64,000 bases of DNA, from positions 1 through 64,000 of IMG/VR virus record IMGVR_UViG_3300027782_000066, one strand, 5' to 3'. The stretch is from a virus. The notes below the pieces were generated by a model. It ran no database searches. It saw only the letters and a program-made list of their open reading frames with translations, and had not been told where the DNA came from. Below, in pieces: positions 1,406-19,800 of this stretch. Position numbers and translations under genes: made by a program. Numbering within the stretch: the stretch's first letter is position 1; each line of letters opens with the position of its first letter.

Positions 1406-2587
1406 ATGAGTAAAAAGAAAATATTATGGATTGGAGATTGCGTAATCCCAAGTGGATTTGGTAGGGTCTCCGAATCTATTCTTACAAGAATTGATAAAGA
1501 ATTTGATATTAATGTTATGGGTATCAATTATTTTGGTCAAAAGCATGATTTCCCATTTAATATCTTTTCAGCATCAACAAAAGGTGGTCAGCAGGTAGAT
1601 CCATATGGATTTAAATATATTGAAGAACTTTATAATGCAATAAAACCAGATATTATTGTTGCTTTCAATGATGTCTGGATTATTAAATATTACTGGGAAG
1701 TTTTAAAAAAATATAAAGAAGAAGATGGATTTAAGTTTGTTACTTATTTCCCTGTAGATGGGGGAGGATGGTTTCCTGAAGTAGTAAAATTTTTAAATGA
1801 TATTGATCTGTCAATTACATATACTGATTTTGCTGCTAATGTAATCAAAGAAGCTGGTTATACTGGCAGAATTGAAACTCTGGAACACGGTATTGATAGT
1901 GATATTTTCTTCAGGAAAAATAAGCAAGAATGTAGAGATATTATTGGTCAAATGAAGAAGGATGATTTTATTGTCTTTAATGGCAATAGAAATCAACCTC
2001 GTAAGAGAATTGATCTTACTATTATGGCATTTGCTAAATTTGCTGTAGGCAAACCAAACACAAAACTTTATCTCCATATGGGTATCAAAGATTGTGGTTG
2101 GGACATTGTTCCACTTTTTTCTGCAGAAATGGCAAAAAATGGACTTGATTCAGAAGGAAGATTATATCTTTCTGGAAGTGACCTTACCCCAGAAAAAAAT
2201 AAAATTACTCCAGAAGTTTTAAATATTATTTACAATTCTTGCGATGTAGGAATTAATACTTCTGAAGGTGAAGGTTGGGGACTTGTTCCCTTTGAAATGG
2301 CAGCAACTGGCACTCCCCAAGTTCTTCCTAATTATGCAGCAAGTGCTGAACTTTTTGAGAATTGTGGAGAGTTGGCTGATATCTGTTTTATGGGTAAAGA
2401 TATTAATTATGGTATTGATAGAGCATATGTTTCTGTTGATAGTATTGCGGAAAAATTAAATAAATTATATTCTGATAAAAAGTATTATACAAAACAAGCA
2501 AAAGCGTGTTCTGCTATGACACAAAGACCAGAATATCAATGGGATAACATTGCTAAAAAAATGACCACTTATTTACAATCTATTTGA
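1406..2587 (+). CDS. Glycosyltransferase, GT-B fold, family 4-like
   Basis: N-terminal 'ILWIGD...SGFGRV', 'HGID', 'NRNQPRKRID', and C-terminal 'SEGEGWGLVPFEMAATGTPQV' (E-x7-E signature). Confidence 0.88.
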   Translation: MSKKKILWIGDCVIPSGFGRVSESILTRIDKEFDINVMGINYFGQKHDFPFNIFSASTKGGQQVDPYGFKYIEELYNAIKPDIIVAFNDVWIIKYYWEVLKKYKEEDGFKFVTYFPVDGGGWFPEVVKFLNDIDLSITYTDFAANVIKEAGYTGRIETLEHGIDSDIFFRKNKQECRDIIGQMKKDDFIVFNGNRNQPRKRIDLTIMAFAKFAVGKPNTKLYLHMGIKDCGWDIVPLFSAEMAKNGLDSEGRLYLSGSDLTPEKNKITPEVLNIIYNSCDVGINTSEGEGWGLVPFEMAATGTPQVLPNYAASAELFENCGELADICFMGKDINYGIDRAYVSVDSIAEKLNKLYSDKKYYTKQAKACSAMTQRPEYQWDNIAKKMTTYLQSI

Positions 2588-2595
2588 GGAGAATT

Positions 2596-2787
2596 ATGAA
2601 CGCACAAGAACTTAAAGAAAATTTTACTAATCAATTTAATGCAGTGGTTGACGAAATCGGCAACCTTGAAAGTCAATTGGTAGCAAAAAAAGAAATGGCA
2701 CTTAAACTTAAAGGTGCTCTTGAAGCTCTGAATATTTTAGAACCGCCCGAAGTAGTGGCAGAACCAGAACAAGAAACTGAAGAATAA
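2596..2787 (+). CDS. Small acidic coiled-coil hypothetical protein
   Basis: GAGGAG Shine-Dalgarno then ATG at 2596 (in frame with ORF 2584..2787); heptad-like helix. Confidence 0.7.
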   Translation: MNAQELKENFTNQFNAVVDEIGNLESQLVAKKEMALKLKGALEALNILEPPEVVAEPEQETEE

Positions 2788-2794
2788 TAATCCG

Positions 2795-2828
2795 ACCTTC
2801 CTTATAAATAATAGGAAGGTTTTTTTTT
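2795..2828 (+). terminator. Intrinsic terminator with late promoter TATAAATA (2803-2810) in its loop
   Basis: accttcct-tataaataat-aggaaggt followed by a T run. Confidence 0.8.
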
Positions 2829-2832
2829 ATAA

Positions 2833-3165
2833 ATGTCTGCTATAACCATCAATATTGTCATTGAGAAAAATACAGATTTCTCTGCAAAGTTTACTATTAA
2901 AAATTTTGATGGTTCGTATCTGAATTTAACAGGGTATTCAGCAGAAGCAAAAATGAAAAAAAGTTATTATACCAGCAATTCTGTAGCATTAAATGTTGCA
3001 TTTGTTGATAGAGTTAAAGGTATAATTTCCTTATCAATGTCTGCAGCAACGACTGCGACATTAGATCCTAAACGTTATGTTTATGATATTGTGCTTACTT
3101 CACCATCTGCACTTAAGACAAGAGTAGTGGAAGGAATTGCTACTGTAACTCCAGGAGTAACATAG
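2833..3165 (+). CDS. Conserved small virion structural protein (baseplate-upper N-domain-like beta sandwich)
   Basis: 'INIVIEKNTDFS...LNLTGYSAEAKMKK...RYVYDIVLT...RVVEG.ATVTPGVT' pattern recurrent in T4-like cyanophage tail regions; late promoter upstream. Confidence 0.7.
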   Translation: MSAITINIVIEKNTDFSAKFTIKNFDGSYLNLTGYSAEAKMKKSYYTSNSVALNVAFVDRVKGIISLSMSAATTATLDPKRYVYDIVLTSPSALKTRVVEGIATVTPGVT

Positions 3166-3866
3166 TGTCTGATTATCAAGTAACGTTAAACCAACCATCT
3201 TATTTGGTAACTGGAGAAAATCCAGATCTTTATAGGATTGGTATTAATTATCAATCTCCGCCAAAGTCAATTCAATATCAAAATTTAATCATTAATAATT
3301 TGTCTGGACAATTTGATTGTATCAAAAAAACTTTTGATATTAGAGTTGGTGGAATTCTTTATAATCCACTCAATGATCAGCAACTTATTATATCTATAAA
3401 TAATATTATATTGCAACCTGGCGTAGGATATTCTGTATCAGGGAGTCAGATTACATTTGCTACTGCTCCTTGTAATGTTTCATTTTTTGGTATTGCTTTA
3501 GCAAATACTGCTGATTTGACTAGAACTATTAATTATGTTGTTGATTATGGTTCAAGTACAATTACTCTTGGCGACAAGGGTTGTCTTGCAATTGATGTGA
3601 CGGGTGTGATAGAATCTTGGGTATTGGTTGCCGATAAAATTGGCAGCTTAGTTCTGGATATTAAAAAATCATCATATACTGATTATCCTAACGTTACTAC
3701 AATATGCGGGGGTGTTAGACCCTCATTAGTGAATCAAAACAAAAACACCAGCGACAATTTAAGTGCTTGGAATAAAGTTCTTAACGCTGGAGACATCTTA
3801 AATTATAATGTTATTTCAGCGACTGGGATTAATAAATTCTCAATTGCACTGAAAATAAAATTATAA
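3165..3866 (+). CDS. Putative virion structural protein
   Basis: GTG start overlaps previous TAG; 'LIISINNIILQPGVGYSVSGSQITFATAP' fibre/baseplate-type repeat. Confidence 0.6.
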   Translation: MSDYQVTLNQPSYLVTGENPDLYRIGINYQSPPKSIQYQNLIINNLSGQFDCIKKTFDIRVGGILYNPLNDQQLIISINNIILQPGVGYSVSGSQITFATAPCNVSFFGIALANTADLTRTINYVVDYGSSTITLGDKGCLAIDVTGVIESWVLVADKIGSLVLDIKKSSYTDYPNVTTICGGVRPSLVNQNKNTSDNLSAWNKVLNAGDILNYNVISATGINKFSIALKIKL

Positions 3867-3869
3867 ATA
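3862..3869 (+). promoter_or_regulatory. T4-type late promoter TATAAATA
   Basis: Exact T4 gp55 consensus, upstream of AGGAGG SD and ATG 3916. Confidence 0.75.
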
Positions 3870-3915
3870 GATTTGAATTAATTACAAAATCAATTTCCTT
3901 AGGAGGAACTTTTAA

Positions 3916-5097
3916 ATGGCTCTTTTAGTCCCAAATATTGGTGAGGTAGATTCGCTTCGCACTCTTCTGAATGCGACTCATCAGATTCCAAGAAACTTGG
4001 TTCTGAAACTCTTCACTTCCAATACGACTCCTGCTGAAGGTGACGTTCCTTCTGCTACTGCGTATTTTGAACCATATAACTCTACCAATACTAATGGTTA
4101 TGGTTCTGCTCCATCAACTGGTTATCCAGCACTGGTAAATAACCGTTCCGATCAAGATTATGTTGCTAACTATGGCATTCTTTTGAATGGTAATCGTTGG
4201 GCAGTTACAACTGCTTCAGATCCTGTCGCTTCTTCTACTGGTTCAAGTGGTACTTCTGCTGCATTTCAGATTACAGTAACTGGTCTTACTGGTACAGTTA
4301 GCGTAGGTAATATTGTTTCGGGTACAGGTATTGCTTCTGGTGCTAAGGTTAGTAATGTAAGTGGTTCAGTGATTACTCTGAATACAGCTAACACGGGTAC
4401 TGTTTCTGGTCCTATTACCTTTGCTGGCGGTGTAACAACTGCTACTTATCCAGAGCAAGTTTTTACTTTTACTGCTGCTGCTGGTAACGTTTATGGTTAC
4501 TACCTTTCTAGAGCACAAAATCTTCCTGTTGCGATTCAAGGAGTAACAGATGCTGCTACTTCTACTGCTAATGGAACTGTTGCTAAAGGTGATAACTCAA
4601 ATCCTTGTATTGGTGTTGTTGGCAACAACTTCATCACTCTTCCTAACGTTGCTCAAGTAATGGACGATGTTACAGTAGGTCAAAGAGTAACAGGTAACAC
4701 TGCTGTTGCTTCTGGTACTACAATTACTGGTATTGATATTGCTCTGAGAAGAGTTTATCTGTCTTCTAACCTGACTGATAACATTCAGGTTGCTACTGAC
4801 TCAAGTGTTGATCTTAACTGGTCTGCAGTTTCTACTGGTGCTGTTGCACACAATCTTCAAGTTGGTGATGTAATTTATATCGCTGCTGGTTCTGGTGGTT
4901 CTACAGTAACTCCTGGTCACTATACAGTATTTACTAAGACATCAACAGGTTTCACAACAACTCCTGCTCTTGCAGGTGCTGGTAATGCAACTTTACTACC
5001 TAGTATTCTCTTCGCTGAAAGATTCACAAATGGTCCATACCCAATTCAAAACAATGGTGACCAAATCAAGATCACTCTAAATGTCAGCCTTGACTGA
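3916..5097 (+). CDS. Virion structural protein with inserted G/T-rich modules
   Basis: Late promoter, strong SD, flanked by terminator; modules 'VSVGNIVSGTGIASGAKV' and 'VTVGQRVTGNTAVASGTTI' resemble repeats in the 3400-aa protein. Confidence 0.65.
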   Translation: MALLVPNIGEVDSLRTLLNATHQIPRNLVLKLFTSNTTPAEGDVPSATAYFEPYNSTNTNGYGSAPSTGYPALVNNRSDQDYVANYGILLNGNRWAVTTASDPVASSTGSSGTSAAFQITVTGLTGTVSVGNIVSGTGIASGAKVSNVSGSVITLNTANTGTVSGPITFAGGVTTATYPEQVFTFTAAAGNVYGYYLSRAQNLPVAIQGVTDAATSTANGTVAKGDNSNPCIGVVGNNFITLPNVAQVMDDVTVGQRVTGNTAVASGTTITGIDIALRRVYLSSNLTDNIQVATDSSVDLNWSAVSTGAVAHNLQVGDVIYIAAGSGGSTVTPGHYTVFTKTSTGFTTTPALAGAGNATLLPSILFAERFTNGPYPIQNNGDQIKITLNVSLD

Positions 5098-5177: not shown

Positions 5178-8100
5178 ATGGCAGTATTTTCCTACGATTC
5201 CAGAATTAATTCTGAAGTAGGCGAAGTTGTATTTTCGCCCGTAGGGAATTCTGTATTCAATTTAAGTTTTAGTTACAAAAGTAACCCACCACAAATTGTA
5301 CAAACTGTAGATTACTACACAATTAATGAATCTGCAAATGTAGTAATTGATCTTGGTTCATTAGAATTCACATATGAATATGCAAACTATGGATTTATTG
5401 ATATTTCATATACAGATAAAGTATTCAAAACAATAGGAAGTTCACAATCTTCTGCATCTTATAATAATAATGTTAAAGTAAATATTAATCTGTATAATTA
5501 TGAATCAAAAAATAATGTAATTTTTACTTGGGTAGGTAATGGCACCTTATTTGAAATAGGTGGTGATATTACTTTAATTGTTGCTCCTGGAATTACGGGA
5601 CCACCAAGACACACAAATGCTTATATTGGAAATGCAAATATTGACTTTAGTGGCGAAGCAGATACAGCAAAATATTACTATGGTGGTACATTACCACTAA
5701 TCACTGGTCCAGTTACATATAATTATAATTCTACTACTGTAAATGCACCTTATTCCACTGACTATGGACGTATTTACGCTACAACTACAAATGCGTTTGA
5801 TTACGGTGCGGTATCAGAAACAGCAGTAAATAGAATTGATTATGCTGATGATTTAGTACAATCATATAAGTATCCATTTGGTACTGTATTACTCTCTTCA
5901 TATACAGAATCTCATTTCGTACCATCCTATAATGGATCTGGTACTATTTCTATTTTTAAAAGTGGTATAGAATATAATTCATCTTCTCCAATTACTATAG
6001 GAGAGGGGACATTATTTGCCTTTGATAGTATTGGTACATATTCTCTGGTCATACCAGCTCCATCTGGGTTTGGACTATTTGGAATTTTTGGCAAATCAGA
6101 AAATTCTCATAATTACACTTATAAAGCATTTACACAAACTTCAGTACCAGATTATAAAAATTATGGTGATTTAAATTCATATTCAATATCTTCTGATTAT
6201 GGTTTCGTTGGAGATAAAGCATTAACTCCTGATCAAGATTATGGATTACTTGAATATCCACTTAGATTTGGTTCATATAAATTTAATTCTTCTACAGAAA
6301 CAACTACACCAAAAAATTATGTAGGTTCTGGATTATTCTCAACTATTTCTGGTTCTACTCAGTCAAAAACAAATACTATTGAAATTAAACCAGAAACCTC
6401 TCTGTTTGCAATCTATGGTGCCGCATACACCATTCAGCCAAGAACTAATCAAATATACACATATACTGTTTCAGACGTTCTGTACGCCCTAGGAAGTGCC
6501 AATGAGGCATTTGTATACAAGTATTATAAAACAAAACCATTTAGTATTAATTCTATTGATCTGGGGGTAATTAGTGAGTATGCATCCACTATTGATTACG
6601 GTCTAGTAATTAATGTATTTACGAGTGCATATGATTATGAATACCTTGTAGATAAGAGTGTTGGTGATGGTAAAAATCTCACAAATATTATTGGAAGTTC
6701 TGAACCTGTTATCAGAACCTTTGGGTATACTGGAATTGGTAAAATTAATACGTTTAAATCTGCATCTGTCACATTTACAGAACCAACTCCACAAACAATT
6801 CCTACTGAAGGATTTGGATTATTTACTGTCACTGGATCTTGTGGTGTCAGATTTAATACCACATATCCTTATACGGGATCTGGTTTTGCATATTCCAATT
6901 CTGAATCAATTAATTCTTTCTCAAGAAGATATATTTTTGTTACATCATCGGAAGATCTTTACACGACATTAAATCTCGGTAGTGTTAATGAATTTGGATC
7001 TACAATTGATTATGAAACAATTGATACAAGAGCAACTTCTGGAGTTAATTATGGATTAATTGTAGCAGAATCTGATCTTCCATATAAAGGTTTCAGAGTT
7101 ATTTCTGGATCTGCAGATTCTTATTATAATCATTTATACATTAATTCTGGTTCTGGAACTACAAGATTGTTTGGTGGATCTGCACAAACAGAATCTATTG
7201 TTGTAAAACAACCAGAAAGTACTGATCTCTTCACAATCAGTGGTTCCTGTTCGTCGAATACTACTCTGGTACTTACCAGTGCTGGTATTAATTATGTGTA
7301 TGGTGGATCTACGAACAAATATACACACAGATATTCTGGTTCTTCAATCAATACATTCTTCTCTGTTGATCTTGGAGATATTATAACTTCTGGTTCCTCA
7401 ACTAATTATGGATCTATTGGTGATGATAGTGATCAAGAAATTAATTATGATTATATTATTAATACCGATTATGTTTATCCATACGGTAAATTTATTTACT
7501 CTGGTGCCTGTAGTGAAGTTCGCGTCCTACCATCATATAATGGATCTGGTTCGAATAAAATTTCTGGAGCAGCAACAGTTACATTTACAGAACCAACTCT
7601 ACAAATTTATGTTGAAAGAGATTATGGGTTATATGCAATTAATGGTTCTGCAACAACTGCATATAAAACTTCTTACGCATATAATGGTTCTGGATCAATC
7701 TATAAAGATAGTGGATGTAAATTCTCTGTCATTTATAATTATACTCTTGCATCAACAATTGCATTCTCAACAGAGAATTATGGAGATATTGTTTCTTATG
7801 GATCTATATCAGATTATGGTTCAATTTCAGAATTCAATATTGCAGCAATTAATTATGGATATGTAATTCATACTGAACAAATTAGACCTTACGGTTCTAC
7901 AAGTATTTCTGGTTCTGGAGTTACAACAAAACAAAATATTTACAAGCAAGTTGGTTCTGGATCACTCTTTACATTTAAAGGATCTGCAGATTTTGCTTTA
8001 CCGCTTCTTACAACAGATACATCAACATCTCTCTTCGGGATTCAAGGTAATGCATCTGTACTGTTCAGAGGTTCTTATACTACTTCAGGAAACATTTATG

Positions 8101-11100
8101 TAGGAAATTATGAAATATCACAAACACCTACAAGTACTGAAACGTATAGTTATAATTCTTCTTCTGTATCAGTATTCTCAACATCTGATGCTGGGACAAT
8201 TATTACTAGTGGCGATACAGCAAATTATGGTTCTGTAATTATTGGTAGTGATGTTGGATTTGATTATGGTGTAATTATTAACACGAGAACCATTTATCCT
8301 TATGGTTTACTGAATGTAACAGGATCTTCCACAACTAAAAAATCACAAGTTGTTGTTGGATCTGGAATACTATCAACTATCGGAACTGCAACAGTTTCAT
8401 TTGTTGAACCAACACCACAAATTTATGTTTCTGTTGAATATGAATTTAATTCTATTTACGGCAAACCAGCAATTATTGCAACTGGTTCTGCGTCAACAAT
8501 CTTCTATAGAAGACCATCATATATTGGATCTGGATCTCTATTTACAATCAGCGGTTCCAATTCTTCTGTAAGTTTTAATTATGATTTTAATTCAGTTAAT
8601 TACTTTACCACATCTGATTATGGTGATGTAATTACTTCTGGTTCAACCACTAATTATGGATTTATTACTGCTGGTAGTGGTAGTAAAATTGATAGTGGTT
8701 ATATTATTAATACAACTACAGAATTCCCATACAGAGGTTGTGTATCTGTAAGCAGTTCTGCTTCTGTTCAATTCTGTAGAATACCTTCGTATATTGGTTC
8801 TGGTAATCTGTTTGCATTCAGTACGAAAGAGCAAAATAGAATTGATAGTGTTAGAACAGATACATCAACATCTCTGTTTAGTGTTTATGGTTCAGCATTA
8901 ACAAAACAAAGTCCTTCTTTTGTTGGTACTGGATCACTATTTGAAGTTGGGGTAGTTACTAACTCTACAGTATACAGTTATAATTCTTCTTCAATAACAA
9001 TATTCTCTACTGATAATTATGGTTTAGTCAGCAACATTGCTGATATAACTTCAAATTATGGAACAATTTTTGTTGGTAGTGACGTTGGAATTGATTACGG
9101 TTCTGTTATTGACACAAAAAATAATTATCCATATGGCACTCTTTCAGTCAATGGCTCTTACAACATTGCAAAGAGATCATTTAGTCATCAAACCACAGGA
9201 TCTATCAATATTTCTGGTGCTGCAACAACTGCTCAAGCACAACCAGTACCACAAATTTACATCTACAGAGATACCAATCTTTATACTGTAAGTGGCGTCT
9301 CTGCTACAGCATTTGTAAGAATTACTAAAGGTTCTGGAACACTCTTCGCAATTAGTAATTCTTCTGCAGCGATTGCATACAATTATAATACATCTTCAAT
9401 TAAAACATTTGATAGTTCTGATTACGGTGCAATTACTGTTTCTGGAACTACAGTTAATTATGGGAATATTGGAAATCTTGGCGATGGATTCTTTAACTAT
9501 GGTTCAATTGAAGACACAACCACTTATTATCCATTCGGTCTTCTCAAATTCTTTGGTTCTGCTGGAATTGCAAATCTTGCTGGCATTACATATTCTGGTT
9601 CTGGTTCAATCTCCACAATTCGTGGCGGCGCATCATCTGTAGCATTTGTCACAAAACAACCAGAAACTACTGATCTCTTCACAATTAGTGGTTCTATTAC
9701 TGAAAAATATACAAGCAAATACTTTGGTTCTGGATCTATTCTTACAGTTGGTGGTGAAGCAAACTCTGCTTCCTACAGTTATAATATATCGTCGGTAGGA
9801 ATATACACCATTAATGATCTTGGAACCATTACAACTTCTGGTTCTACAGTCAATTATGGTTCTATTACAATTGGCGCTGATATAGTTCTTAACTATGGTT
9901 CAGTTAAAGATATTCAAAACGTATATCCTTACGGATCATTTGTAATTACATCTGTTGCATCAAGTTCAAAAATTGCTGTATACATTGGTTCTGGTGCAAA
10001 AACTTTTATCAAGGGATCTGCAAGTTCTTCAGTATATACTGCCAAGCAACCAGAAACAACAGATCTTTATGCAATCACTGGAACTGCAACAGTTTTTGTA
10101 AGAAATGCATTTACAACAACTGGTTCACTCTTTACAGCGTCTGGTTCTGTAACCTCTGCAGCATACAATTACAATACTTCTTCATTAACAACCCTCTCTA
10201 CAAATGATTTTGGAACCATTACAACTTCTGGTTCTACAGTCAATTATGGTTCTATTGTTGTCGGAAGTGACATTGGAATTGATTATGGTTATGTAATTGA
10301 TAGAACTGACAATTACCCATTCGGTAATCTCAATCTTAACGGTACTCACAAAACTCTCAGAACATTTGGATTTGCTGGTTCTGGTTCTGCAAATATCAGT
10401 GGTGCTGCTGGAGTTATCTCCACACAACCATTTGTAAATATTTACGTTTACCCTGAATATTCTAAAGATATTGATTTAATTATTGAAGATGATTATATCG
10501 TAGAATATGATTATGAAATACTATATGGAAGTAGAAATACTAATCTTTACACTATAAGTGGTACTGCTACAACACCTTCTGCAACAGCAATATACAAATC
10601 TTCTGGTTCATTATTCTCTTTTGGTGGATCAGCATCTTCAATTACTTATGCTTATACACTGAATTCACTTGAATACTTCTCAACACTTGATCTTGGAACG
10701 GTTAACACAACTGGAACAAGTAGTGATTATGGTTCAATAACTGTAGGTCATAATGCAATACTTGATTATGGTTCAGTTTTTGTTACTCAAACCGATTTTC
10801 CATATAAAGGAAAAGTATTTGTTACTGGTGCTGCTACAACTCAAAAATATAATGTTTACACGCAGGTTGGATCTGGCACACTCAATGTTATCAGTGGATT
10901 TGCAAATTCAATCTACGAAGGTAAAAAGAAGCTTGAATCAACAGACCTCTTTAGTATCAGTGGAACTCCATATGTTACTCTCACCAATAAGTTCTTTGGT
11001 TCTGGTTCTCTCTTAACTGCAGAAGGATCTGCAACTACTGGAACATATAATTATAATTCTTCTTCAATTACATCATATTCAACCACTGATTTTGGAAGCA

Positions 11101-14100
11101 TTACAACTTCTGGTTCTACAGTCAATTATGGTTCTATTGTTGTCGGAAGTGACATTGGAATTGATTATGGTTATGTAATTGAGAGAGAATTTAAATATCC
11201 TTATGGTCTTTTTAGAATTAGTGGTAATTATCAGACTTCTAATAGATCCTTTGGACACACAACTGTTGGATCTATTAGTATTTTTGGATCTGGAACAACT
11301 TCACTGGTTGAACCAACACCACAAATTTACACTTACCCAGAATATCCTACAGATGTTGATTTAATTATTGAAGATGATTATATTGTAGAATATGATTATG
11401 AAATATTATATGGATCTACAACTAGAGATACCAATCTTTATGTTGTATCTGGTTCTGCTGCATCACCGAGAACATTCATCTCTCGTGGAATTGGATCGCT
11501 GTTTACATTAAACAGTTCTGCACCTTCTGTAACATACAATTATAGATCTGTTGATATTGAATATACTTCATCAATTAATTACGGAACTGTAGCAACTACT
11601 GTAAATTCTATTGATAATGGATTGATTACAAATTCTGTAGATCTTTATACAGATTATATTTCAATTACGATTGATGAAAAAGCAATCAGATTTGGTTCTA
11701 TCAATACCTCTGGTTCTTCAACCTTACTCAAAACATTTACTCCAGTTGCTTCTGGTTCTCTGTTTGCCTCCAAAGGAGCAGCATTTTCTACATTCGTTCC
11801 AGTTGCTACAGATACAGTACTGTTCACAATTTCTGGTTCTGCAACAAATCTACTTCGTACATTTGGACATACATCATCTGGTTCACTCTTTACGATTGGT
11901 GATCACACAGAAAGAGTTACTTACAATTACCATATTGATTCTGTCAACACATACTCAGCTCTTGATTATCAAACTATTACATCCACTGGAACTTCTGAAG
12001 ATTATGGTTTCATTGCTTCCAGTGCAAATGAAGTTCAACCAGTTGATTGTGGTTATATTAATGTATCAGAATCTGTACGAGCTTATCAAGGATCTATCAG
12101 GATTACTGGTACTACCAAGATCACCTATATTCCTCTTCTCATCTACACCAGTACTGGTGGATTTAAGATTAGTGGTGCTGTCACTACAATTGGTATTCTT
12201 ACTGCAAAAGGAAGACCAGAAAGCACAGATCTTTATAATGTTAGTGGTAGCGCAAACTCCAGTGTCACCAGACCTACATTTACAGAAACAGCTAAGTTCA
12301 GTACATTCTCTGGTGCTGCCGAATCAACTACAAGGATATATAACCAATTTTCAATCAATGAATTTAGTAAGATTGATTATGAATTAATTACTGGATCTGG
12401 TTCAGCAATTGATTATGGATTGATATTTAATAGTTCTAATTCAATTTTCAATTATGGAGATATTTTTAATAGAGAAACTGTTCTTCCATATGGAAATATA
12501 ACAATTGGGGCGGGTGCGGTTGATTATAAATTTGTACCTAACTTTGCATATACTGGAACAGGATCTCTGTTTGCATATACGGGATCTGCAGATGCAAGAT
12601 CTTTCTCTCAAGGTAAGGATGTTGAAACTAGACTCTTTAATGTTTCTGGATCAGCTTTAACAACAGCACCAAAAATTTATACTTCAACTGGATCTCTATT
12701 TAATATTGGATCTAAGATTGAAAGTGCTGCTTATTCATATAATTCTTCATCTATTAATGTATTCTTGTCTAATGACTATGAATATATTACATCTATTGCA
12801 GACACAACAGTTAACTATGGATTAATTTCCGAATCTTCTGTTGGTGATACTGATCTTGGATATATTGTAAATCAGAATACTTTATATCCATATGGAAGAT
12901 TTACTTTTGCTGGTCAATCTTCTATTGAATTCTATAGAAGACCTTCTTACGTTGGATCTGGATCTCTGTTTGCATATACGGGATCTGCAGAAACAAGATC
13001 CTTCTCACAAGGAAAAGATGCTGACACACAACTATTCAATGTTTCTGGATCTGCTAATACACCATTCAGCAGACCTTACATCGCATCAGGTTCGCTGTTT
13101 AATATTGGTTCTAAAGATGAAAGAAGAACTTATGTTTATGATGCATCTTCAATCGTTACATTCTCTGATTCTGATTATGAATACATTAATTCTACAGCAT
13201 CTGTATACAAAAATTATGGATTAGTTTCACAAATTGCTGATGGTGATACTGATCTTGGATATGTTACAAACACTGATATTGCATATCCATTCGGAACATT
13301 AATTCTGTCTGGTTCTTCACTAACGAGTAATCCAAGAATTCATAAGGGTTCTGGATCCCTGTTTGCATTCAGTGGTGTTGCACAATCTTCTGTCAAATCA
13401 ACAACGACAGAAACTTCACTGTTTACAATTTCTGGCACTTCCAGCAATATCAGAAGATTTGGATACGCTGCAGCAGGATCTCTATTTAATATCGGATCTA
13501 AGATTGAAAGAGCGGCATATGCTTATAATCAATCTTCTATTACTGAATACTCAACTAATGATTATGGTTATGTTTCATCTATTGCAGATACAACAACTGA
13601 TTGTGGATTAATTTCCGAATCTTCTGTTGGTGATATTAACTTTGGAGAAATTAGAGTTAATCAAAACCAATATCCATTTGGTTCGTTTGCATTCTACGGT
13701 GCTGCAACTCAGAAATTTACCAGATCTGGTTATATTACAACAGGTTCGCTGTTTGCAATTAGTGGCAGTGCTCAAGCAACAAGCAAATCCTTCCAAACAG
13801 AAACTTCACTGTTTACAATTTCTGGTACTTCCAGAAATATCAAAGCATTTGGTTACTCAGGAACAGGATCTCTGTTTGATATCGGAAGCACAATTGAAAG
13901 TAGAACATATGTCTATAATGAATCATCAATTCTTAATTATAACACACTTAATTATGAAGACATTGGAGAAGGTGCAACTACATTCAATAATTATGGAACT
14001 ATAACTGAAGGATCATCTGAATACTATAATTACGGTTCTGTATCTGACACCGATATTGTATATCCATATGGTGGATTTAATATCTCTGGTGGAACTGAAG

Positions 14101-16613
14101 ACAAATTTGAACCTATTCTTGCTTGGACAGGATCTGGAAATATTAATGTTTCTGGTTCTGTATACATTGTATTCAATCTTTCTACTAAGTCAGAACCAAC
14201 ATCTGATGATACTATCAAGATCTCTGGATCTTCTAAGTCTCTCTTCTCTCTCAGACATATTGGTTCTGGAAGTGTCTTCAACATTGGTAAGAAGATTGAG
14301 AAAGCAGCATATTCTTATAATACATCTTCAATTGTTTCATATGGAACAGCAGATTATCAATTTATTTCCAGTGCTGCAGACTTAACACCAGATTATGGTT
14401 CTGTATCAGAATCTAGTGCTGGTTTAACAGATCTGGGATCTATTGTCAATCTCGATTATGTATATCCATTCGGAACTCTTAAAGTTTCAAATTCTGTTAT
14501 TCAGAAAGCAACTTCTGTATATCGTGGATCTGGTTCGCTGTTTGCTATTGGTGGAGCGAGCAATGCATACAGCAGAATTGCTAGTTCGGAAACTCAACTA
14601 TTTGTTGTTTCTGGAAATGCTGAAACACCAAGATCCAAAGTATTTACTGGTTCTGGTTCACTCTTTACATTCAGAAGTCTTACAGAATCCAGTGCTGTCA
14701 ATCCACCAGCAACTGGTCTGTTCAGAATTTCTGGCATTGCCAAAGAAAGAGCTACAGATTCTTGGCTTGGTGCTGGTTCAATTACCTTACAGACAGGAAT
14801 TTATCCAGAATACTTATACTATCGTCCAACTCCTCGCTATGTCACAGTTTTTGGAACATCTCATATTTCAGGATCTTCCACTACAGCGTATATCTCAACT
14901 TATACCAATGTAGGTTCTGGTGTAATTTACAATTCTGGTTCTGCATTAACGCCAAGAACCAGACCATTTATTGGTGCTGGCACAGAATTTATTTCTGGAA
15001 AACTGAAAGAATCTTTCAGCAAAGGAAACTACGCTGGATCTGGTTCTCTGTTTACATTCAACGGTCTTACAGAATCTTCAACCAAAGTTCTTGCATCAGA
15101 AACCAGACTTTACAAAACTTCTGGATCTGCTGCAACTACTCGTTCCGAAGTATATCGTGGAACAGGATCTCTGTTTACGACCAAAGGAATTGCAGAATCT
15201 TTTGTTCGTACAGTTCCATCAGAAACTCAACTCTTCAAAGTTTCTGGAATTGCAAAGATTCTTCTTGCAAACAAATTTGTTGGTTCTGGATCACTCTTTA
15301 CATTCAAGGGTGCTACAGAGTCTACAACTATTATCACATCAACAGAAACTCAACTCTTCAAAGTTTCTGGAATTGCAACAACACGTTACAACGCAGTTTA
15401 TACATCTTCTGTTGGTGGAACAGAATTTATTTCTGGTGCAGCAACTCAGACCAGATATGTTCCGAAATATACTGGTTTTGGTTCACTCTTTACATTCAAT
15501 GGTCTCACAGAATCTTCCACAAGAACACTTTCATCAGAGACCAGACTGTTCAGAATTTCTGGTTCTGCGTTAACACCAAGAATCAGACAATTTATTGGTT
15601 CTGGAACAGAGTTTATTGCCTCAAACACTGCTACCAGCAAGACCACTATTTACAGTGGTTCTGGTTCACTCTTTACACTCAAGAGTGCTACACAATCCAA
15701 AACAGATGTTTCAACATCAACAGTTCTATTCAAAGTTAGTGGAACTGTTGGAGAATCGTTCATCAGAACCACTTATTTTGGTTCTGGAAAAGTTTCTCTG
15801 CTTCGTGGTGCTGCAGAATCTTCATCAGTCAGAGTACCACCAGAAACACAACTGTTCAGAATTATTGGTGTCTCTACACAATCTACATCAAAAGGAAATT
15901 ATACAGTTTCTGGATCAGAATTTGTTTCTGGACTTGGAACAGAATCTACAAGAAAAATTTACACAGGTTCTGGTTCACTCTTTACATTCAAGAGTGCTAC
16001 AGAATCCAGTTCTTTTGTTCCAGTATCGAAAATTACCGATATCAAGATTTATGGTTTTGCGACTACAACTCATACAGAATCTTATCAAGCAACTGGATCA
16101 ACATTTGTTTACAATTCTGCAAAAGTATCTCGTACATATCCAACTTACAATGCTTCTGGCACAGAATTTATTTCTGGTGCAGCAAATCAAAGAGCAATTT
16201 CTTCCTATCAAGGAAAAGGAAATATTACGGAATTTGGTGGTTCTGCTCAATCTACATTCACTACAATTCCACCAGAAACTCTTCTTTACAGAATTTCTGG
16301 AACAGCAACAACCAGTTTCAAAACTGTATACACAGCAACATCATCTGGTCAATTTACTTACAAAGGAAATGCAGATCTACTTCGCAGACAAGCATTCACT
16401 GGATCTGGATCTCTATTTGCAATCAACTCTGCAACAATTGCACAAAGAGTTACACTTATTGTCGAGACAAATCTCTTCAAAATTAGTGGAGGTGAACGTA
16501 ATAGTTACACAAGAATTTCCATATTTGAAGGCGGTCAAATTAATACTTCTGGTAAGTCTACAGATGAAAAGGTATTATTCACACCATCAAGAATTTTTGG
16601 TACGATAATCTAA
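5178..16613 (+). CDS. Giant (3811 aa) repetitive S/G/T/Y-rich virion appendage/fibre protein
   Basis: Uninterrupted 11.4-kb ORF; many units of triple (D/N)YG...YP(Y/F)G alternating with GSGSLF / ETxLFxISG beta repeats; located in the late structural region. Confidence 0.75.
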   Translation: MAVFSYDSRINSEVGEVVFSPVGNSVFNLSFSYKSNPPQIVQTVDYYTINESANVVIDLGSLEFTYEYANYGFIDISYTDKVFKTIGSSQSSASYNNNVKVNINLYNYESKNNVIFTWVGNGTLFEIGGDITLIVAPGITGPPRHTNAYIGNANIDFSGEADTAKYYYGGTLPLITGPVTYNYNSTTVNAPYSTDYGRIYATTTNAFDYGAVSETAVNRIDYADDLVQSYKYPFGTVLLSSYTESHFVPSYNGSGTISIFKSGIEYNSSSPITIGEGTLFAFDSIGTYSLVIPAPSGFGLFGIFGKSENSHNYTYKAFTQTSVPDYKNYGDLNSYSISSDYGFVGDKALTPDQDYGLLEYPLRFGSYKFNSSTETTTPKNYVGSGLFSTISGSTQSKTNTIEIKPETSLFAIYGAAYTIQPRTNQIYTYTVSDVLYALGSANEAFVYKYYKTKPFSINSIDLGVISEYASTIDYGLVINVFTSAYDYEYLVDKSVGDGKNLTNIIGSSEPVIRTFGYTGIGKINTFKSASVTFTEPTPQTIPTEGFGLFTVTGSCGVRFNTTYPYTGSGFAYSNSESINSFSRRYIFVTSSEDLYTTLNLGSVNEFGSTIDYETIDTRATSGVNYGLIVAESDLPYKGFRVISGSADSYYNHLYINSGSGTTRLFGGSAQTESIVVKQPESTDLFTISGSCSSNTTLVLTSAGINYVYGGSTNKYTHRYSGSSINTFFSVDLGDIITSGSSTNYGSIGDDSDQEINYDYIINTDYVYPYGKFIYSGACSEVRVLPSYNGSGSNKISGAATVTFTEPTLQIYVERDYGLYAINGSATTAYKTSYAYNGSGSIYKDSGCKFSVIYNYTLASTIAFSTENYGDIVSYGSISDYGSISEFNIAAINYGYVIHTEQIRPYGSTSISGSGVTTKQNIYKQVGSGSLFTFKGSADFALPLLTTDTSTSLFGIQGNASVLFRGSYTTSGNIYVGNYEISQTPTSTETYSYNSSSVSVFSTSDAGTIITSGDTANYGSVIIGSDVGFDYGVIINTRTIYPYGLLNVTGSSTTKKSQVVVGSGILSTIGTATVSFVEPTPQIYVSVEYEFNSIYGKPAIIATGSASTIFYRRPSYIGSGSLFTISGSNSSVSFNYDFNSVNYFTTSDYGDVITSGSTTNYGFITAGSGSKIDSGYIINTTTEFPYRGCVSVSSSASVQFCRIPSYIGSGNLFAFSTKEQNRIDSVRTDTSTSLFSVYGSALTKQSPSFVGTGSLFEVGVVTNSTVYSYNSSSITIFSTDNYGLVSNIADITSNYGTIFVGSDVGIDYGSVIDTKNNYPYGTLSVNGSYNIAKRSFSHQTTGSINISGAATTAQAQPVPQIYIYRDTNLYTVSGVSATAFVRITKGSGTLFAISNSSAAIAYNYNTSSIKTFDSSDYGAITVSGTTVNYGNIGNLGDGFFNYGSIEDTTTYYPFGLLKFFGSAGIANLAGITYSGSGSISTIRGGASSVAFVTKQPETTDLFTISGSITEKYTSKYFGSGSILTVGGEANSASYSYNISSVGIYTINDLGTITTSGSTVNYGSITIGADIVLNYGSVKDIQNVYPYGSFVITSVASSSKIAVYIGSGAKTFIKGSASSSVYTAKQPETTDLYAITGTATVFVRNAFTTTGSLFTASGSVTSAAYNYNTSSLTTLSTNDFGTITTSGSTVNYGSIVVGSDIGIDYGYVIDRTDNYPFGNLNLNGTHKTLRTFGFAGSGSANISGAAGVISTQPFVNIYVYPEYSKDIDLIIEDDYIVEYDYEILYGSRNTNLYTISGTATTPSATAIYKSSGSLFSFGGSASSITYAYTLNSLEYFSTLDLGTVNTTGTSSDYGSITVGHNAILDYGSVFVTQTDFPYKGKVFVTGAATTQKYNVYTQVGSGTLNVISGFANSIYEGKKKLESTDLFSISGTPYVTLTNKFFGSGSLLTAEGSATTGTYNYNSSSITSYSTTDFGSITTSGSTVNYGSIVVGSDIGIDYGYVIEREFKYPYGLFRISGNYQTSNRSFGHTTVGSISIFGSGTTSLVEPTPQIYTYPEYPTDVDLIIEDDYIVEYDYEILYGSTTRDTNLYVVSGSAASPRTFISRGIGSLFTLNSSAPSVTYNYRSVDIEYTSSINYGTVATTVNSIDNGLITNSVDLYTDYISITIDEKAIRFGSINTSGSSTLLKTFTPVASGSLFASKGAAFSTFVPVATDTVLFTISGSATNLLRTFGHTSSGSLFTIGDHTERVTYNYHIDSVNTYSALDYQTITSTGTSEDYGFIASSANEVQPVDCGYINVSESVRAYQGSIRITGTTKITYIPLLIYTSTGGFKISGAVTTIGILTAKGRPESTDLYNVSGSANSSVTRPTFTETAKFSTFSGAAESTTRIYNQFSINEFSKIDYELITGSGSAIDYGLIFNSSNSIFNYGDIFNRETVLPYGNITIGAGAVDYKFVPNFAYTGTGSLFAYTGSADARSFSQGKDVETRLFNVSGSALTTAPKIYTSTGSLFNIGSKIESAAYSYNSSSINVFLSNDYEYITSIADTTVNYGLISESSVGDTDLGYIVNQNTLYPYGRFTFAGQSSIEFYRRPSYVGSGSLFAYTGSAETRSFSQGKDADTQLFNVSGSANTPFSRPYIASGSLFNIGSKDERRTYVYDASSIVTFSDSDYEYINSTASVYKNYGLVSQIADGDTDLGYVTNTDIAYPFGTLILSGSSLTSNPRIHKGSGSLFAFSGVAQSSVKSTTTETSLFTISGTSSNIRRFGYAAAGSLFNIGSKIERAAYAYNQSSITEYSTNDYGYVSSIADTTTDCGLISESSVGDINFGEIRVNQNQYPFGSFAFYGAATQKFTRSGYITTGSLFAISGSAQATSKSFQTETSLFTISGTSRNIKAFGYSGTGSLFDIGSTIESRTYVYNESSILNYNTLNYEDIGEGATTFNNYGTITEGSSEYYNYGSVSDTDIVYPYGGFNISGGTEDKFEPILAWTGSGNINVSGSVYIVFNLSTKSEPTSDDTIKISGSSKSLFSLRHIGSGSVFNIGKKIEKAAYSYNTSSIVSYGTADYQFISSAADLTPDYGSVSESSAGLTDLGSIVNLDYVYPFGTLKVSNSVIQKATSVYRGSGSLFAIGGASNAYSRIASSETQLFVVSGNAETPRSKVFTGSGSLFTFRSLTESSAVNPPATGLFRISGIAKERATDSWLGAGSITLQTGIYPEYLYYRPTPRYVTVFGTSHISGSSTTAYISTYTNVGSGVIYNSGSALTPRTRPFIGAGTEFISGKLKESFSKGNYAGSGSLFTFNGLTESSTKVLASETRLYKTSGSAATTRSEVYRGTGSLFTTKGIAESFVRTVPSETQLFKVSGIAKILLANKFVGSGSLFTFKGATESTTIITSTETQLFKVSGIATTRYNAVYTSSVGGTEFISGAATQTRYVPKYTGFGSLFTFNGLTESSTRTLSSETRLFRISGSALTPRIRQFIGSGTEFIASNTATSKTTIYSGSGSLFTLKSATQSKTDVSTSTVLFKVSGTVGESFIRTTYFGSGKVSLLRGAAESSSVRVPPETQLFRIIGVSTQSTSKGNYTVSGSEFVSGLGTESTRKIYTGSGSLFTFKSATESSSFVPVSKITDIKIYGFATTTHTESYQATGSTFVYNSAKVSRTYPTYNASGTEFISGAANQRAISSYQGKGNITEFGGSAQSTFTTIPPETLLYRISGTATTSFKTVYTATSSGQFTYKGNADLLRRQAFTGSGSLFAINSATIAQRVTLIVETNLFKISGGERNSYTRISIFEGGQINTSGKSTDEKVLFTPSRIFGTII
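10217..11182 (+). repeat. 84-bp exact direct repeat (10217-10300 and 11099-11182) within the giant gene
   Basis: cattacaacttctggttctacagtcaattatggttctattgttgtcggaagtgacattggaattgattatggttatgtaattga occurs twice; 47 bp also shared with 9820-9866. Confidence 0.9.
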
Positions 16614-16620
16614 AAAATTT

Positions 16621-16628
16621 TATAAATA
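16621..16628 (+). promoter_or_regulatory. T4-type late promoter TATAAATA
   Basis: Exact consensus in the intergenic gap. Confidence 0.75.
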
Positions 16629-16652
16629 AAGTAGCATCTATTAATCTCTTAA

Positions 16653-16841
16653 ATGACGACACAAGTACAGTTTCGTAGAGGAACTACATCTCAACACGCA
16701 GCATTTACTGGTGCTCAAGGTGAAATTACAGTAGATACTGATAAAAAAACCGCAATTATTCATGATGGTTCTACAGCTGGCGGAATTGAATTAGCCAGAG
16801 CCGATGGTGCAATTGCTATGGCAATTGTATTCGGTTTATAA
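16653..16841 (+). CDS. Stand-alone Mtd-N / hyaluronidase-N-type fibre attachment domain mini-protein
   Basis: 'QVQFRRGTT...FTGAQGEITVDTDKKT..IHDGSTAGG' is the N-terminal domain of many phage fibres; ends in AIAMAIVFGL. Confidence 0.75.
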   Translation: MTTQVQFRRGTTSQHAAFTGAQGEITVDTDKKTAIIHDGSTAGGIELARADGAIAMAIVFGL

Positions 16842-16891
16842 TTTAGATATATAGAATAACGTAAAAACGACCTCGCAGGAATTTTAAACAA

Positions 16892-19800
16892 ATGGCAAAG
16901 CAGTTATCGTACTACTACACTTTTACACCAGGAACTAGAACGGTTGTAATTAGTGGTAATGTTAATAGAAAAAGATTGTTATTGATTACCAATACAACAC
17001 GTAATGTAATTGTTTATAATATGACCCAACCATCGTTGGGTGCATCAGCAATTACTTATAATGCCGATAATGATGAAACTACAGTTGTATTAACATATGA
17101 CACTGGAGCTGCTGGGCATCAATCGGGAGATACTCTTCAAATTTTTGCTGAGCAAGATACAGTAAAATTTGAACCCGCTGAGTATCTGATTGATCCTGTT
17201 AGCAAACTGCGTGTATCGCAACCAAACACTCTGATTGATACGGACTTTGAATATGGTCTGCAATCTACTAAATGGGAAACACTTGAAAGATGTAATAACG
17301 TTCCATCATTCTATTCAGTTGCTGGCGATACAAGTATTTCTAATATCACTGCTATTACTACAAATGGTGGTAGAGAAGTTACTGTAACTACTGCAAGTGC
17401 TCATGGTTTAACGACAGGTATTCCTATTGATATTCGTGGTATTACCTCAATTACTGTTGAAGGTACTTGGTTGATCCGTAAAACAACTGACTATCAATTC
17501 ACTTTCGAAACTCCTTTTACTCAGTTAGGAACAACTTCAGTTCCAGTTTCAATCTTAACTCCTTACTCTACTATTATTGTTGGTAGATTTTACGTTAACT
17601 CTGTACTCAACTTAGATAATAGTGTAACAGTTGATGAAGGTCCTATGGTGACCGATGGTGTATCACCTGCCAGCACCATTTCTGTAACTACATCATATGA
17701 TCACGGATTTGTAACTGGTTCGCCATTCTACCTTACAAACTCTCTTGGTAATATTTCCGTAAACTTTGACCCAGCATCTTTCTCGGTCGGCGGTAATATT
17801 GAAGATAGAACTTCATTTGATTATGATACAGGTTTCTTCAACCCTTATGAGCCAATTCATGATGGTTGTACCCTTAAAAAAATTCCCGCAAACTTTATTG
17901 ATAGCAACACTGGTGCTACAATATCAACAACTGGATCTATTGCTACATTTACACTGACCACAACAGGTAACCCAGCACTGCTTGCGGGTCATACAATTAC
18001 TGGTACTGGTGTTGCACCTAACACCATTATTTTAAGTGGTTCTGGTAATACTTGGACAGTTAATATTTCACAAACTACAACTAATGGTCCTCTGACTGCA
18101 TCTTTCCCAACTGCTGGTTTTATCAGAATTGATAATCACGGATTGGAAAATGGAGATCCACTTTGCTACATTGGTACTACTCATACCACTAGTCCACAAA
18201 TTCTTGCGGTATCATCAGGATACTTCCAAATTGCTTCTGGTAATCTTCCATCCTATAATAATGATGGTACTGGCGGTGCAAACGCATCTGGTTGGTTATA
18301 TGCTGCAGTAATTGATGAAGATCATATCAGAGTTGCTACTAACCCCAAAGATGCTTATGATCGTACCAATTTAATTTCATTCTCAAGTTTTGGTGGTAAC
18401 TCCACTGCAACTCTGTTCTTCGGTCTGATGAACAAGAGAGGATATGAAATTCAATCAAGCATTTTTTCTATTCAAACGATTGCATCTTCTTCCGAAGTAA
18501 GAGTAGCATTCCCTGCTGGTACTACTTGCAAGTCTCTGAATATTTACCCAGAGATGCAAATTTCACTGAACAACACTGGCGTATCTTCACTTGATGGTGT
18601 CTATGTTGTCAAAGAGTATCCTGTAACTTCTAATTTTACTAACGATATTTTTAATGAAAATGATACTCACTTTATTATGGAGGGTCCAACAAACTCTTCT
18701 GGCAACTTTGCCACACAAGCATCTAGCGTAACATATTCATTCTCTGGTTCCGCTGCTTCTGTAAATACTATTTTAACTCTCAGTAGCTATGAAAGATCCA
18801 TTCAACCAACTTCAATTACTGCAGTTTCTGGTAGCACTGTAACTATCAATGGTGTTTCTGCTCTTGGTGATGGCACTAATCCTTATCGTGTAGGTTCTGT
18901 TGTAAGATTTACTGCATTAGGTTCATTGACTGGAGTAACTCCTAACTTAGATTATTTCATCTCTGCAGTAGGAGCACTTAGTTCAGGTTCTGTAACTCTT
19001 ACACTTTCTACTACGCATCCAACAATTGCAACAACTGCTGTAACTCTTGGTGGTACAACTAGTGCTGGAACCTTTACTGGTAGTATTACTGGTAATACTT
19101 TAACTGCTGGTTCTGTAACTGGATATGTTCAAGTAGGACAATTAGTTACTGGTACTGGTATTACTGCTGGTACAGTTATTACTGGATTTGGTAGTGGCAC
19201 TGGTGGCGCTGGTACTTATTTTGTAAATACTCAGCAAACAGTAACCAGTACTGCAATGACTGTTTCTGCTAACTTGAAAATTTATACTAATGGTATTCGT
19301 GCTCAAGTACATTCTGGTGCTAATTCTTGGCAGAACCACACAAGAATGTCCATTCATGATTGGTCTTCCTTGACTGGTAAAATGTTTACTCGTGAAGCAA
19401 TTTCCAATACAGGACATTCCATCTATATCAAAAATCACGGTCTTTCAAACGGTCAACCATTGATGTTTGTTGGTGGTGGTAATGGATTTGTAAACTCTGC
19501 TGGTAGTGGTACTGCAGTTGCTTCTAACTATGCTATTTTAAACGAATCTGTAAACCAAGGTTATGTTTATTTCGTTTTAGTAACAGATAGAGATAATTTC
19601 ACACTTTGGACCTCTGAACCAGATGGATTTACTGGTGCATATGGTGGTTGGGTAACTACACCAACTGTTGGTGGAACTATGGGTACATTGAGTGGTAACG
19701 TTGCTCAAGTAGTTTTAAGTCCAACTGGTTCACCTTCAGTTCTTCCAATCACTCAGTCTGGTGGTATCTATCAACTCCATCCTGGTTTTATGGTTGGTAA

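Follow-up and report, generated by a model that had tools for sequence, protein, structure and literature searches.

Alternative reading frames of a C-terminal repeat domain are kept almost free of stop codons in a giant gene of a T4-like freshwater phage

Under the ambush hypothesis, selection acts on hidden, off-frame stop codons through the fate of frameshifted ribosomes and by means of synonymous codon choice (Seligmann and Pollock 2004; re-examined in PMC5909447; bioRxiv 10.1101/2025.10.02.679949). The giant gene described here, found in viral DNA of IMG/VR record IMGVR_UViG_3300027782_000066, shares these features but departs from the hypothesis in direction and in scale. Off-frame stops have been purged (1 against 45 expected) rather than kept or enriched, and where the ambush signal is genome-wide and weak, the present one is restricted to a single domain of a single gene family. 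The window, meaning the whole stretch of 64,000 nucleotides analysed (positions 1 to 64,000 of the record), is part of a 79-kb contig of a T4-like phage with 35% G+C, found in freshwater metagenomes.

Three other systems bear some likeness to this gene. Overprinted viral genes also have long alternative-frame open reading frames (ORFs) that far exceed the expectation from codon permutation and are conserved in relatives. In the present case, however, the -1 frame lacks ATG and GTG codons, both alternative frames are open, the synonymous rate is unreduced and the off-frames evolve like non-coding sequence. Phage genes with programmed -1 or +1 frameshifts (lambda G/GT, T7 10A/10B, dnaX) likewise have an alternative frame that is open downstream. 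In those genes the open frame lets shifted ribosomes make a longer product, whereas here there is no extension, no slippery heptamer and no single conserved entry point. Internally repetitious coding sequences that are open in all frames (Ohno 1984) and frameshift-prone tandem repeats (PMC12871928) are built, as is this domain, from repeats with three open sense frames. The units of the present domain are nevertheless long (123 nt) and diverged, and its openness is selected at variable sites, not inherited from a short oligomer as in Ohno-type repeats. Literature searches found no earlier description of such a stop-free domain.

The giant protein consists of (D/N)YG "knobs" alternating with GSGSLF and ETxLFxISG strands, and its last ~660 residues contain strands only, with a period of ~41 aa or 123 nt. 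The features on which the analysis turns are the following, in window coordinates; the -1 frame is frame +2 of the window numbering.

5178-16613, plus strand: giant gene, 3811 aa, PHROG 11522 family of unknown function, ~20 knob-bearing repeat units ahead of the knob-free C-terminal domain
14624-16483, plus strand: knob-free repeats, ~15 diverged 41-aa GSGSLF/ETxLFxISG units, coinciding with the zone below
14624-16483, plus strand: zone with open -1 frame, in two runs (14624-15736 and 15740-16483), with 1 stop where 45 are expected
15574-16605, plus strand: longest open run of the +1 frame, 1032 nt, preceded by a second run at 15007-15570
15737-15739, plus strand: sole -1 stop inside the zone, TAG, arising from GTT AGT
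16484-16567, plus strand: return of -1 stops, eight within 84 nt, in the non-repeat C-terminal segment
16606-16608 and 16611-16613, plus strand: +1 stop followed by the true stop, one codon apart

Both alternative sense frames of this knob-free C-terminal domain of beta-strand repeats are kept stop-free by selection on synonymous sites. The first-pass annotation had counted six plus-strand stop triplets in the region (14911, 14923, 14947, 15004, 15571 and 15737), and a recount of 14624-16483 gave these six and no others, the first five in the +1 frame and the last in the -1 frame. The stop-free stretches 15007-15570 and 15740-16483 were likewise recovered. When the codons of the zone (14622-16484, 621 codons) were permuted synonymously so that protein and codon usage were preserved, the -1 frame was expected to hold 45.1 +/- 4.2 stops (minimum 30 in 2000 shuffles) against the 1 observed. 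The strong signal in the window is that of the -1 frame; the signal in the +1 frame is modest in the window and strong in relatives. Within-zone shuffling gave 7.1 +/- 1.9 expected +1 stops against 5 observed, which is not significant alone, and the codon usage upstream of the zone gave 14.5 +/- 2.9 (P ~3e-4). Between 15573 and 16607 there are no +1 stops, with 4.1 expected by permutation (P ~0.005) or 6.1 from upstream codon usage (P ~3e-4). The 1032-nt run is three times as long as the longest +1 run in the other genes of the window (at most 354 nt), and it closes, as first described, just ahead of the true stop. The zone starts right after the last knob and ends where the repeats yield to a non-repeat terminus of ~43 aa.

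Only stop triplets are depleted, and only on the sense strand, as had been proposed: TGG, TAC and TAT are not reduced, and antisense stop triplets occur at expectation. In the zone 108 codons precede AA, AG or GA, and just 1 of them has T as its last base, compared with 342 of 682 upstream; T-ending codons in this position are replaced by C- or A-ending ones. Before AC, AT, GG, GC and GT, T is normal or raised (TGG 51 vs 31; TGC 30 vs 21). Thus TTC and ATC are used before stop-making codons, while in other contexts Phe is TTT in 26 of 29 cases and Ile is ATT in 30 of 32. Within the zone, Arg has moved from AGA to CGT and CGC, Ser has moved away from AGT toward TCN, and NTA codons are fewer. 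The major head gene and the 3400-aa neighbour lack the trait, in agreement with the first reading, and no other gene in the rest of the 79-kb contig has it. Nor is there ambush-type enrichment upstream of the strongly depleted zone (86 stops observed vs 108 expected in one frame; 342 vs 356 in the other).

Repeat homogenisation had been named as a caveat, since it reduces the number of independent sites. The repeat copies are only 60-80% identical, and when repeats were collapsed to 40 unique amino-acid pairs, 22.6 T-ending codons were expected and 1 was found (P ~1e-18), so the depletion persists. Comparison with the closest relative (L002/L004), which has an equivalent zone with 83% amino-acid identity, shows how the codons change. 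At critical junctions the window and L002 differ 11 times, and ten of these differences involve only A, C and G. Exchange between C and T is suppressed there, whereas C<->T differences dominate upstream of the zone. At seven junctions the next codon is stop-making in one of these two phages only; that phage has A or C and the other has T. Four-fold divergence in the zone (0.23-0.25) is similar to that upstream and in neighbouring genes. Openness alone is constrained, and a second protein is not encoded.

The depletion is a trait of the PHROG 11522 gene family, and most homologs lack a normal off-frame stop density. The Synechococcus phages S-CAM1 and S-CAM3 have 26-27% identity to the window protein in the matched C-terminal region and show a stronger depletion in both frames. 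In the last 1070 codons of the S-CAM1 gene, 1 stop is observed against 15.4 expected in the +1 frame and 1 against 73.5 in the -1 frame; in the last 904 codons of S-CAM3 the corresponding values are 1 against 20.7 and 6 against 58. Sixty-three IMG/VR loci were collected with a C-terminal profile and their last 600 codons were scored. Most of them have z of -8 to -10 in the -1 frame and -4 to -7 in the +1 frame, often with partial depletion upstream. Control genes from the homolog loci (101 neighbouring genes of at least 350 codons) averaged z of -1.1 and +0.7 and went no lower than -4.0. The +1 frame remains open until a few codons from the true stop in the window, L002, S-CAM1 and S-CAM3. In the upstream half of the S-CAM1 gene, off-frame stops are clustered in knob segments and none occurs in strand repeats. 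Over 1874-4790 of the S-CAM1 locus (L003), the few +1 stops lie ~740-765 nt apart, one per large repeat unit and at homologous knob positions. Taken together, the repeat correction, the homologs at 27% identity and the coupled codon changes between orthologs support the general proposal that selection acts on out-of-frame reading.

The reading favoured here, tentatively, is that selection acts on ribosomes that are out of frame, so that none is released within the knob-free repeats ("anti-ambush"). Having neither ATG nor GTG starts, the -1 frame could be entered only by loss of frame, not by initiation. Because the avoided set is what release factors read and initiation cannot give access to this frame, the selective agent would be the out-of-frame ribosome; slipped transcripts, or mutants with a frameshift, are less likely agents. 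The depletion is extreme and affects stop triplets only, on the sense strand only and in the giant gene only, the zone matches the repeat domain exactly, and the giant gene also avoids slippery patterns, all of which support this reading. Where the final 620-1070 codons of a message of 2000-3800 codons are at risk, ribosomes that lose frame through processivity errors may account for chains at the percent level. A ribosome that slipped frame on the giant-gene mRNA would be kept by the stop-free frames from discharge by release factors within the repeat domain, and would run on to the end of the domain. Speculatively, release inside the array might produce stable, near-full-length truncated chains that end in an unterminated repeat, and such chains from a self-associating array could poison fibre assembly; a run-on chain with a long non-native tail might be excluded or degraded. 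The benefit of stop avoidance is in this respect one that we infer.

Several observations weigh against this account. The single TAG at 15737-15739 sits at the orthologous position in the 83%-identical L002, so that a stop inside the zone is conserved. Upstream GSGSLF strands of the same gene are depleted only patchily, and the trait is missing from other fibre-like genes, the 3400-aa neighbour among them. In a quick tree of 41 C-terminal domains, openness of the -1 frame needs at least four changes, and in one clade of close relatives (L007-L011) the +1 frame alone is open. There have been at least four gains or losses of the trait, and any benefit is therefore lineage-dependent. Off-frame products are also unremarkable in hydropathy and rare codons. 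The earlier suggestion of hydrophobic degron tails, at least in a simple form, is not supported on this point. Mean Kyte-Doolittle hydropathy is -0.12 for frame 0, -0.36 for the -1 frame and +0.03 for the +1 frame, and off-frame codon rarity in the zone is no higher than in the off-frames of other genes. Reading of the off-frames by ribosomes is deduced from the pattern in the sequence, and the premise that a junk-tailed chain would be less harmful than a truncated one is conjecture.

A bolder possibility, to which we assign a low probability, is that more than one frame of the repeat domain is translated with appreciable and maybe condition-dependent frequency, shifted ribosomes being purposely kept on the message. 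Conditions such as tRNA starvation or tRNA-cleaving host defences might bring this about. The outcome could be a minority of fibres with aromatic/Cys-rich or Leu/Gln-rich tails, a form of translational bet-hedging, or frame errors on the 3800-codon message could be sent to a quality-control pathway. If true, such a domain would define a new class, one built to work irrespective of reading frame and owing its maintenance solely to selection at synonymous sites.

Functional off-frame products, either from overlapping genes or as C-terminal frameshift variants carried by some fibres as such aromatic/Cys-rich or Leu/Gln-rich tails, are similarly improbable. Open frames of 250-1070 codons do persist over deep divergence, and long conserved open frames are the signature that overlapping-gene detectors seek. 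The predicted -1 product is 25% aromatic and 7% Cys, and the predicted +1 product is 23% Leu. An overprinted gene is ruled out, however, by the lack of starts, the normal synonymous divergence and the non-coding-like evolution of the alternative frames. The -1 frame holds 0 ATG, 0 GTG and 1 TTG in the window zone and none of the three in the S-CAM1 zone. Both frames are open simultaneously, and the synonymous rate in frame 0 is not reduced, its four-fold divergence of 0.23-0.31 being equal to that of neighbouring genes. The off-frame ORFs have 56-71% amino-acid identity and a divergence of 0.01-0.12 at their own four-fold sites; they evolve as non-coding frames do, with no conservation beyond what frame 0 imposes. 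Translations of the two off-frames matched no Pfam or PHROG family, and in BLASTP they matched none of the frame-0 proteins of four homologs. The programmed alternative C-termini suggested in the first-pass annotation are not supported either: off-frame sequences are not conserved as proteins, and slippery sites are scarce. The zones of the window, S-CAM1, S-CAM3, L018 and L040 are devoid of X_XXY_YYZ heptamers, and X_XXN patterns are depleted (z of -2 to -8). Along the whole giant gene, slip-prone X_XXN across codon boundaries is strongly under-represented (z of -5 to -8 in the window, L001, L003, L018 and L040). The open frames end at or ahead of the normal stop in the window and its relatives.

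It is a little more doubtful still that a frame-blind agent, distinct from a slipped ribosome, recognises UAA, UAG and UGA on the mRNA and so causes their avoidance. Depletion of both alternative frames and its confinement to the sense strand would fit such an agent. However, the avoided set is exactly that of the release factors, as UGG, UAC and UAU are not avoided, and the avoidance is limited to one domain of one gene; we know of no nuclease with UAA/UAG/UGA specificity.

The proposal that open frames serve evolvability, by permitting a frameshift and a compensating frameshift in receptor-facing repeats or by tolerating frequent insertions and deletions (indels), is largely refuted and retains very little probability. 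Short paired +/-1 gaps do appear in pairwise alignments of relatives, but they are no commoner than in flanking DNA: gaps that are not a multiple of 3 number 1.79 per 100 mismatches in the zone and 1.43 in flanking DNA, which is no excess. In contigs from four freshwater metagenome studies covering 11000-16900, no +/-1 or +/-2 indels were found in the zone, although these are consensus contigs from which rare variants could escape; length changes in the zone are in-frame only (6-nt and 123-nt deletions). The zone is also the most conserved part of the giant gene, with 0.6-0.8% against 2.5% divergence between strains and 83% amino-acid identity to L002 against 40-70% elsewhere in the protein, and the off-frame translations do not resemble any frame-0 protein. 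The cycles of frameshift and compensation envisaged at first are thus not borne out. A neutral legacy, in which the array was amplified from a short stop-lacking unit (Ohno-type) or homogenised by gene conversion, is refuted by the collapsed-repeat test, by retention of the trait at 27% amino-acid identity and by the coupled codon changes between orthologs, and the copies are too far diverged (60-80% identical), even though part of the unit derives from (TTCTGG)n-like sequence that is open in all frames.

The repeat array itself varies in nature. A metagenome contig (run X7) lacks exactly 123 nt at 15219-15343, that is, one 41-aa unit, which represents natural in-frame variation in copy number. 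Contigs of metagenome runs X2, X4 and X5 match the window from ~15279 on and carry unrelated AT-rich sequence before it, one with an A11 run. This junction may reflect recombination where one repeat meets the next, or related phages may have a shorter version of the C-terminal module that stands alone.

Residues 2609-3811 of the giant protein match the PHROG 11522 profile (E = 2e-88), and the best stretch covers profile positions 1908-2130 of 2130, so that the C-terminal end is included. A C-terminal motif, PxR(I/T)(F/Y)G(T/W)II, is conserved in the window protein, S-CAM1, S-CAM3 and IMG/VR homologs. A Pfam search of the giant protein gave no domain, blastn of the region against a phage collection gave no match, and the ESM Atlas returned nothing but unnamed viral clusters, below 0.9. 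Matches to WD40 and HslV in a profile search of PDB sequences were at chance level (E 0.2-1) and were discarded. An AlphaFold2 model of the C-terminal 450 aa from a 41-sequence alignment was all-beta with a mean pLDDT of 34 and was unusable.

Upstream of the giant gene lies a phrog_10330 virion structural protein, and downstream follow a small phrog_9648 "tail protein" ORF, the 3400-aa tail-fibre-like gene, neck proteins and the major head protein (phrog_138). A "tail protein" gene likewise lies 3' of the giant gene in both S-CAM1 and S-CAM3. Judged by synteny, the giant gene is a member of a T4-like (Kyanoviridae-type) tail-fibre/virion module. No tRNA genes were found within the window. One further feature lies just beyond the gene.

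16621-16628, plus strand: T4-type late-promoter-like box TATAAATA, read directly, just 3' of the giant gene

With this box in place, the genes beyond it probably do not depend on read-through from the giant gene, and polarity on downstream genes is thus an unlikely driver of stop avoidance. The 62-aa ORF at 16653-16841, which follows the box, matches only positions 1-51 of 152 of phrog_9648 (E = 3e-20). The "tail protein" gene at the equivalent relative place in S-CAM1 and S-CAM3 is full-size.

The composition of the giant protein is also unusual, with a single Met (the initiator, and hence one in-frame ATG), 8 Cys, 3 Trp and 17 His. Its 230 Val codons include 1 in-frame GTG and its 190 Leu codons 4 TTG, compared with 7% and 12% in other genes; CTG is normal. 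Met is likewise very scarce in several other probable structural genes of the contig (e.g. 33691-35643 and 75908-78049), and several are poor in GTG as well. Scarcity of in-frame starts was accordingly dropped as evidence that partial products are selected against. A possible cause of this scarcity is that internal starts, or residues prone to oxidation on exposed fibres, are avoided. Where synonymous divergence is equal (L003/L065 and window/L002), the giant protein has changed more rapidly than its neighbours, with 76% against 85-94% amino-acid identity at a four-fold divergence of ~0.3, and its divergence is concentrated in the N-terminal, knob-bearing part.

Off-frame stops are usually expected to be neutral or useful, and the depletion described here is the opposite. 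Selection on them has been argued for twenty years from weak genome-wide signals, whereas here the effect is near all-or-none: 40-75 stops would be expected and 0-3 are present. Software that takes a stop-free alternative ORF as the mark of an overlapping gene would make false predictions at these loci. The trait belongs to one structural domain of one phage gene family, where it has been conserved over deep divergence and yet gained or lost several times. Because the cultured phages S-CAM1 and S-CAM3, which grow on Synechococcus, carry it, the fitness cost of an off-frame stop is directly testable by synonymous recoding.

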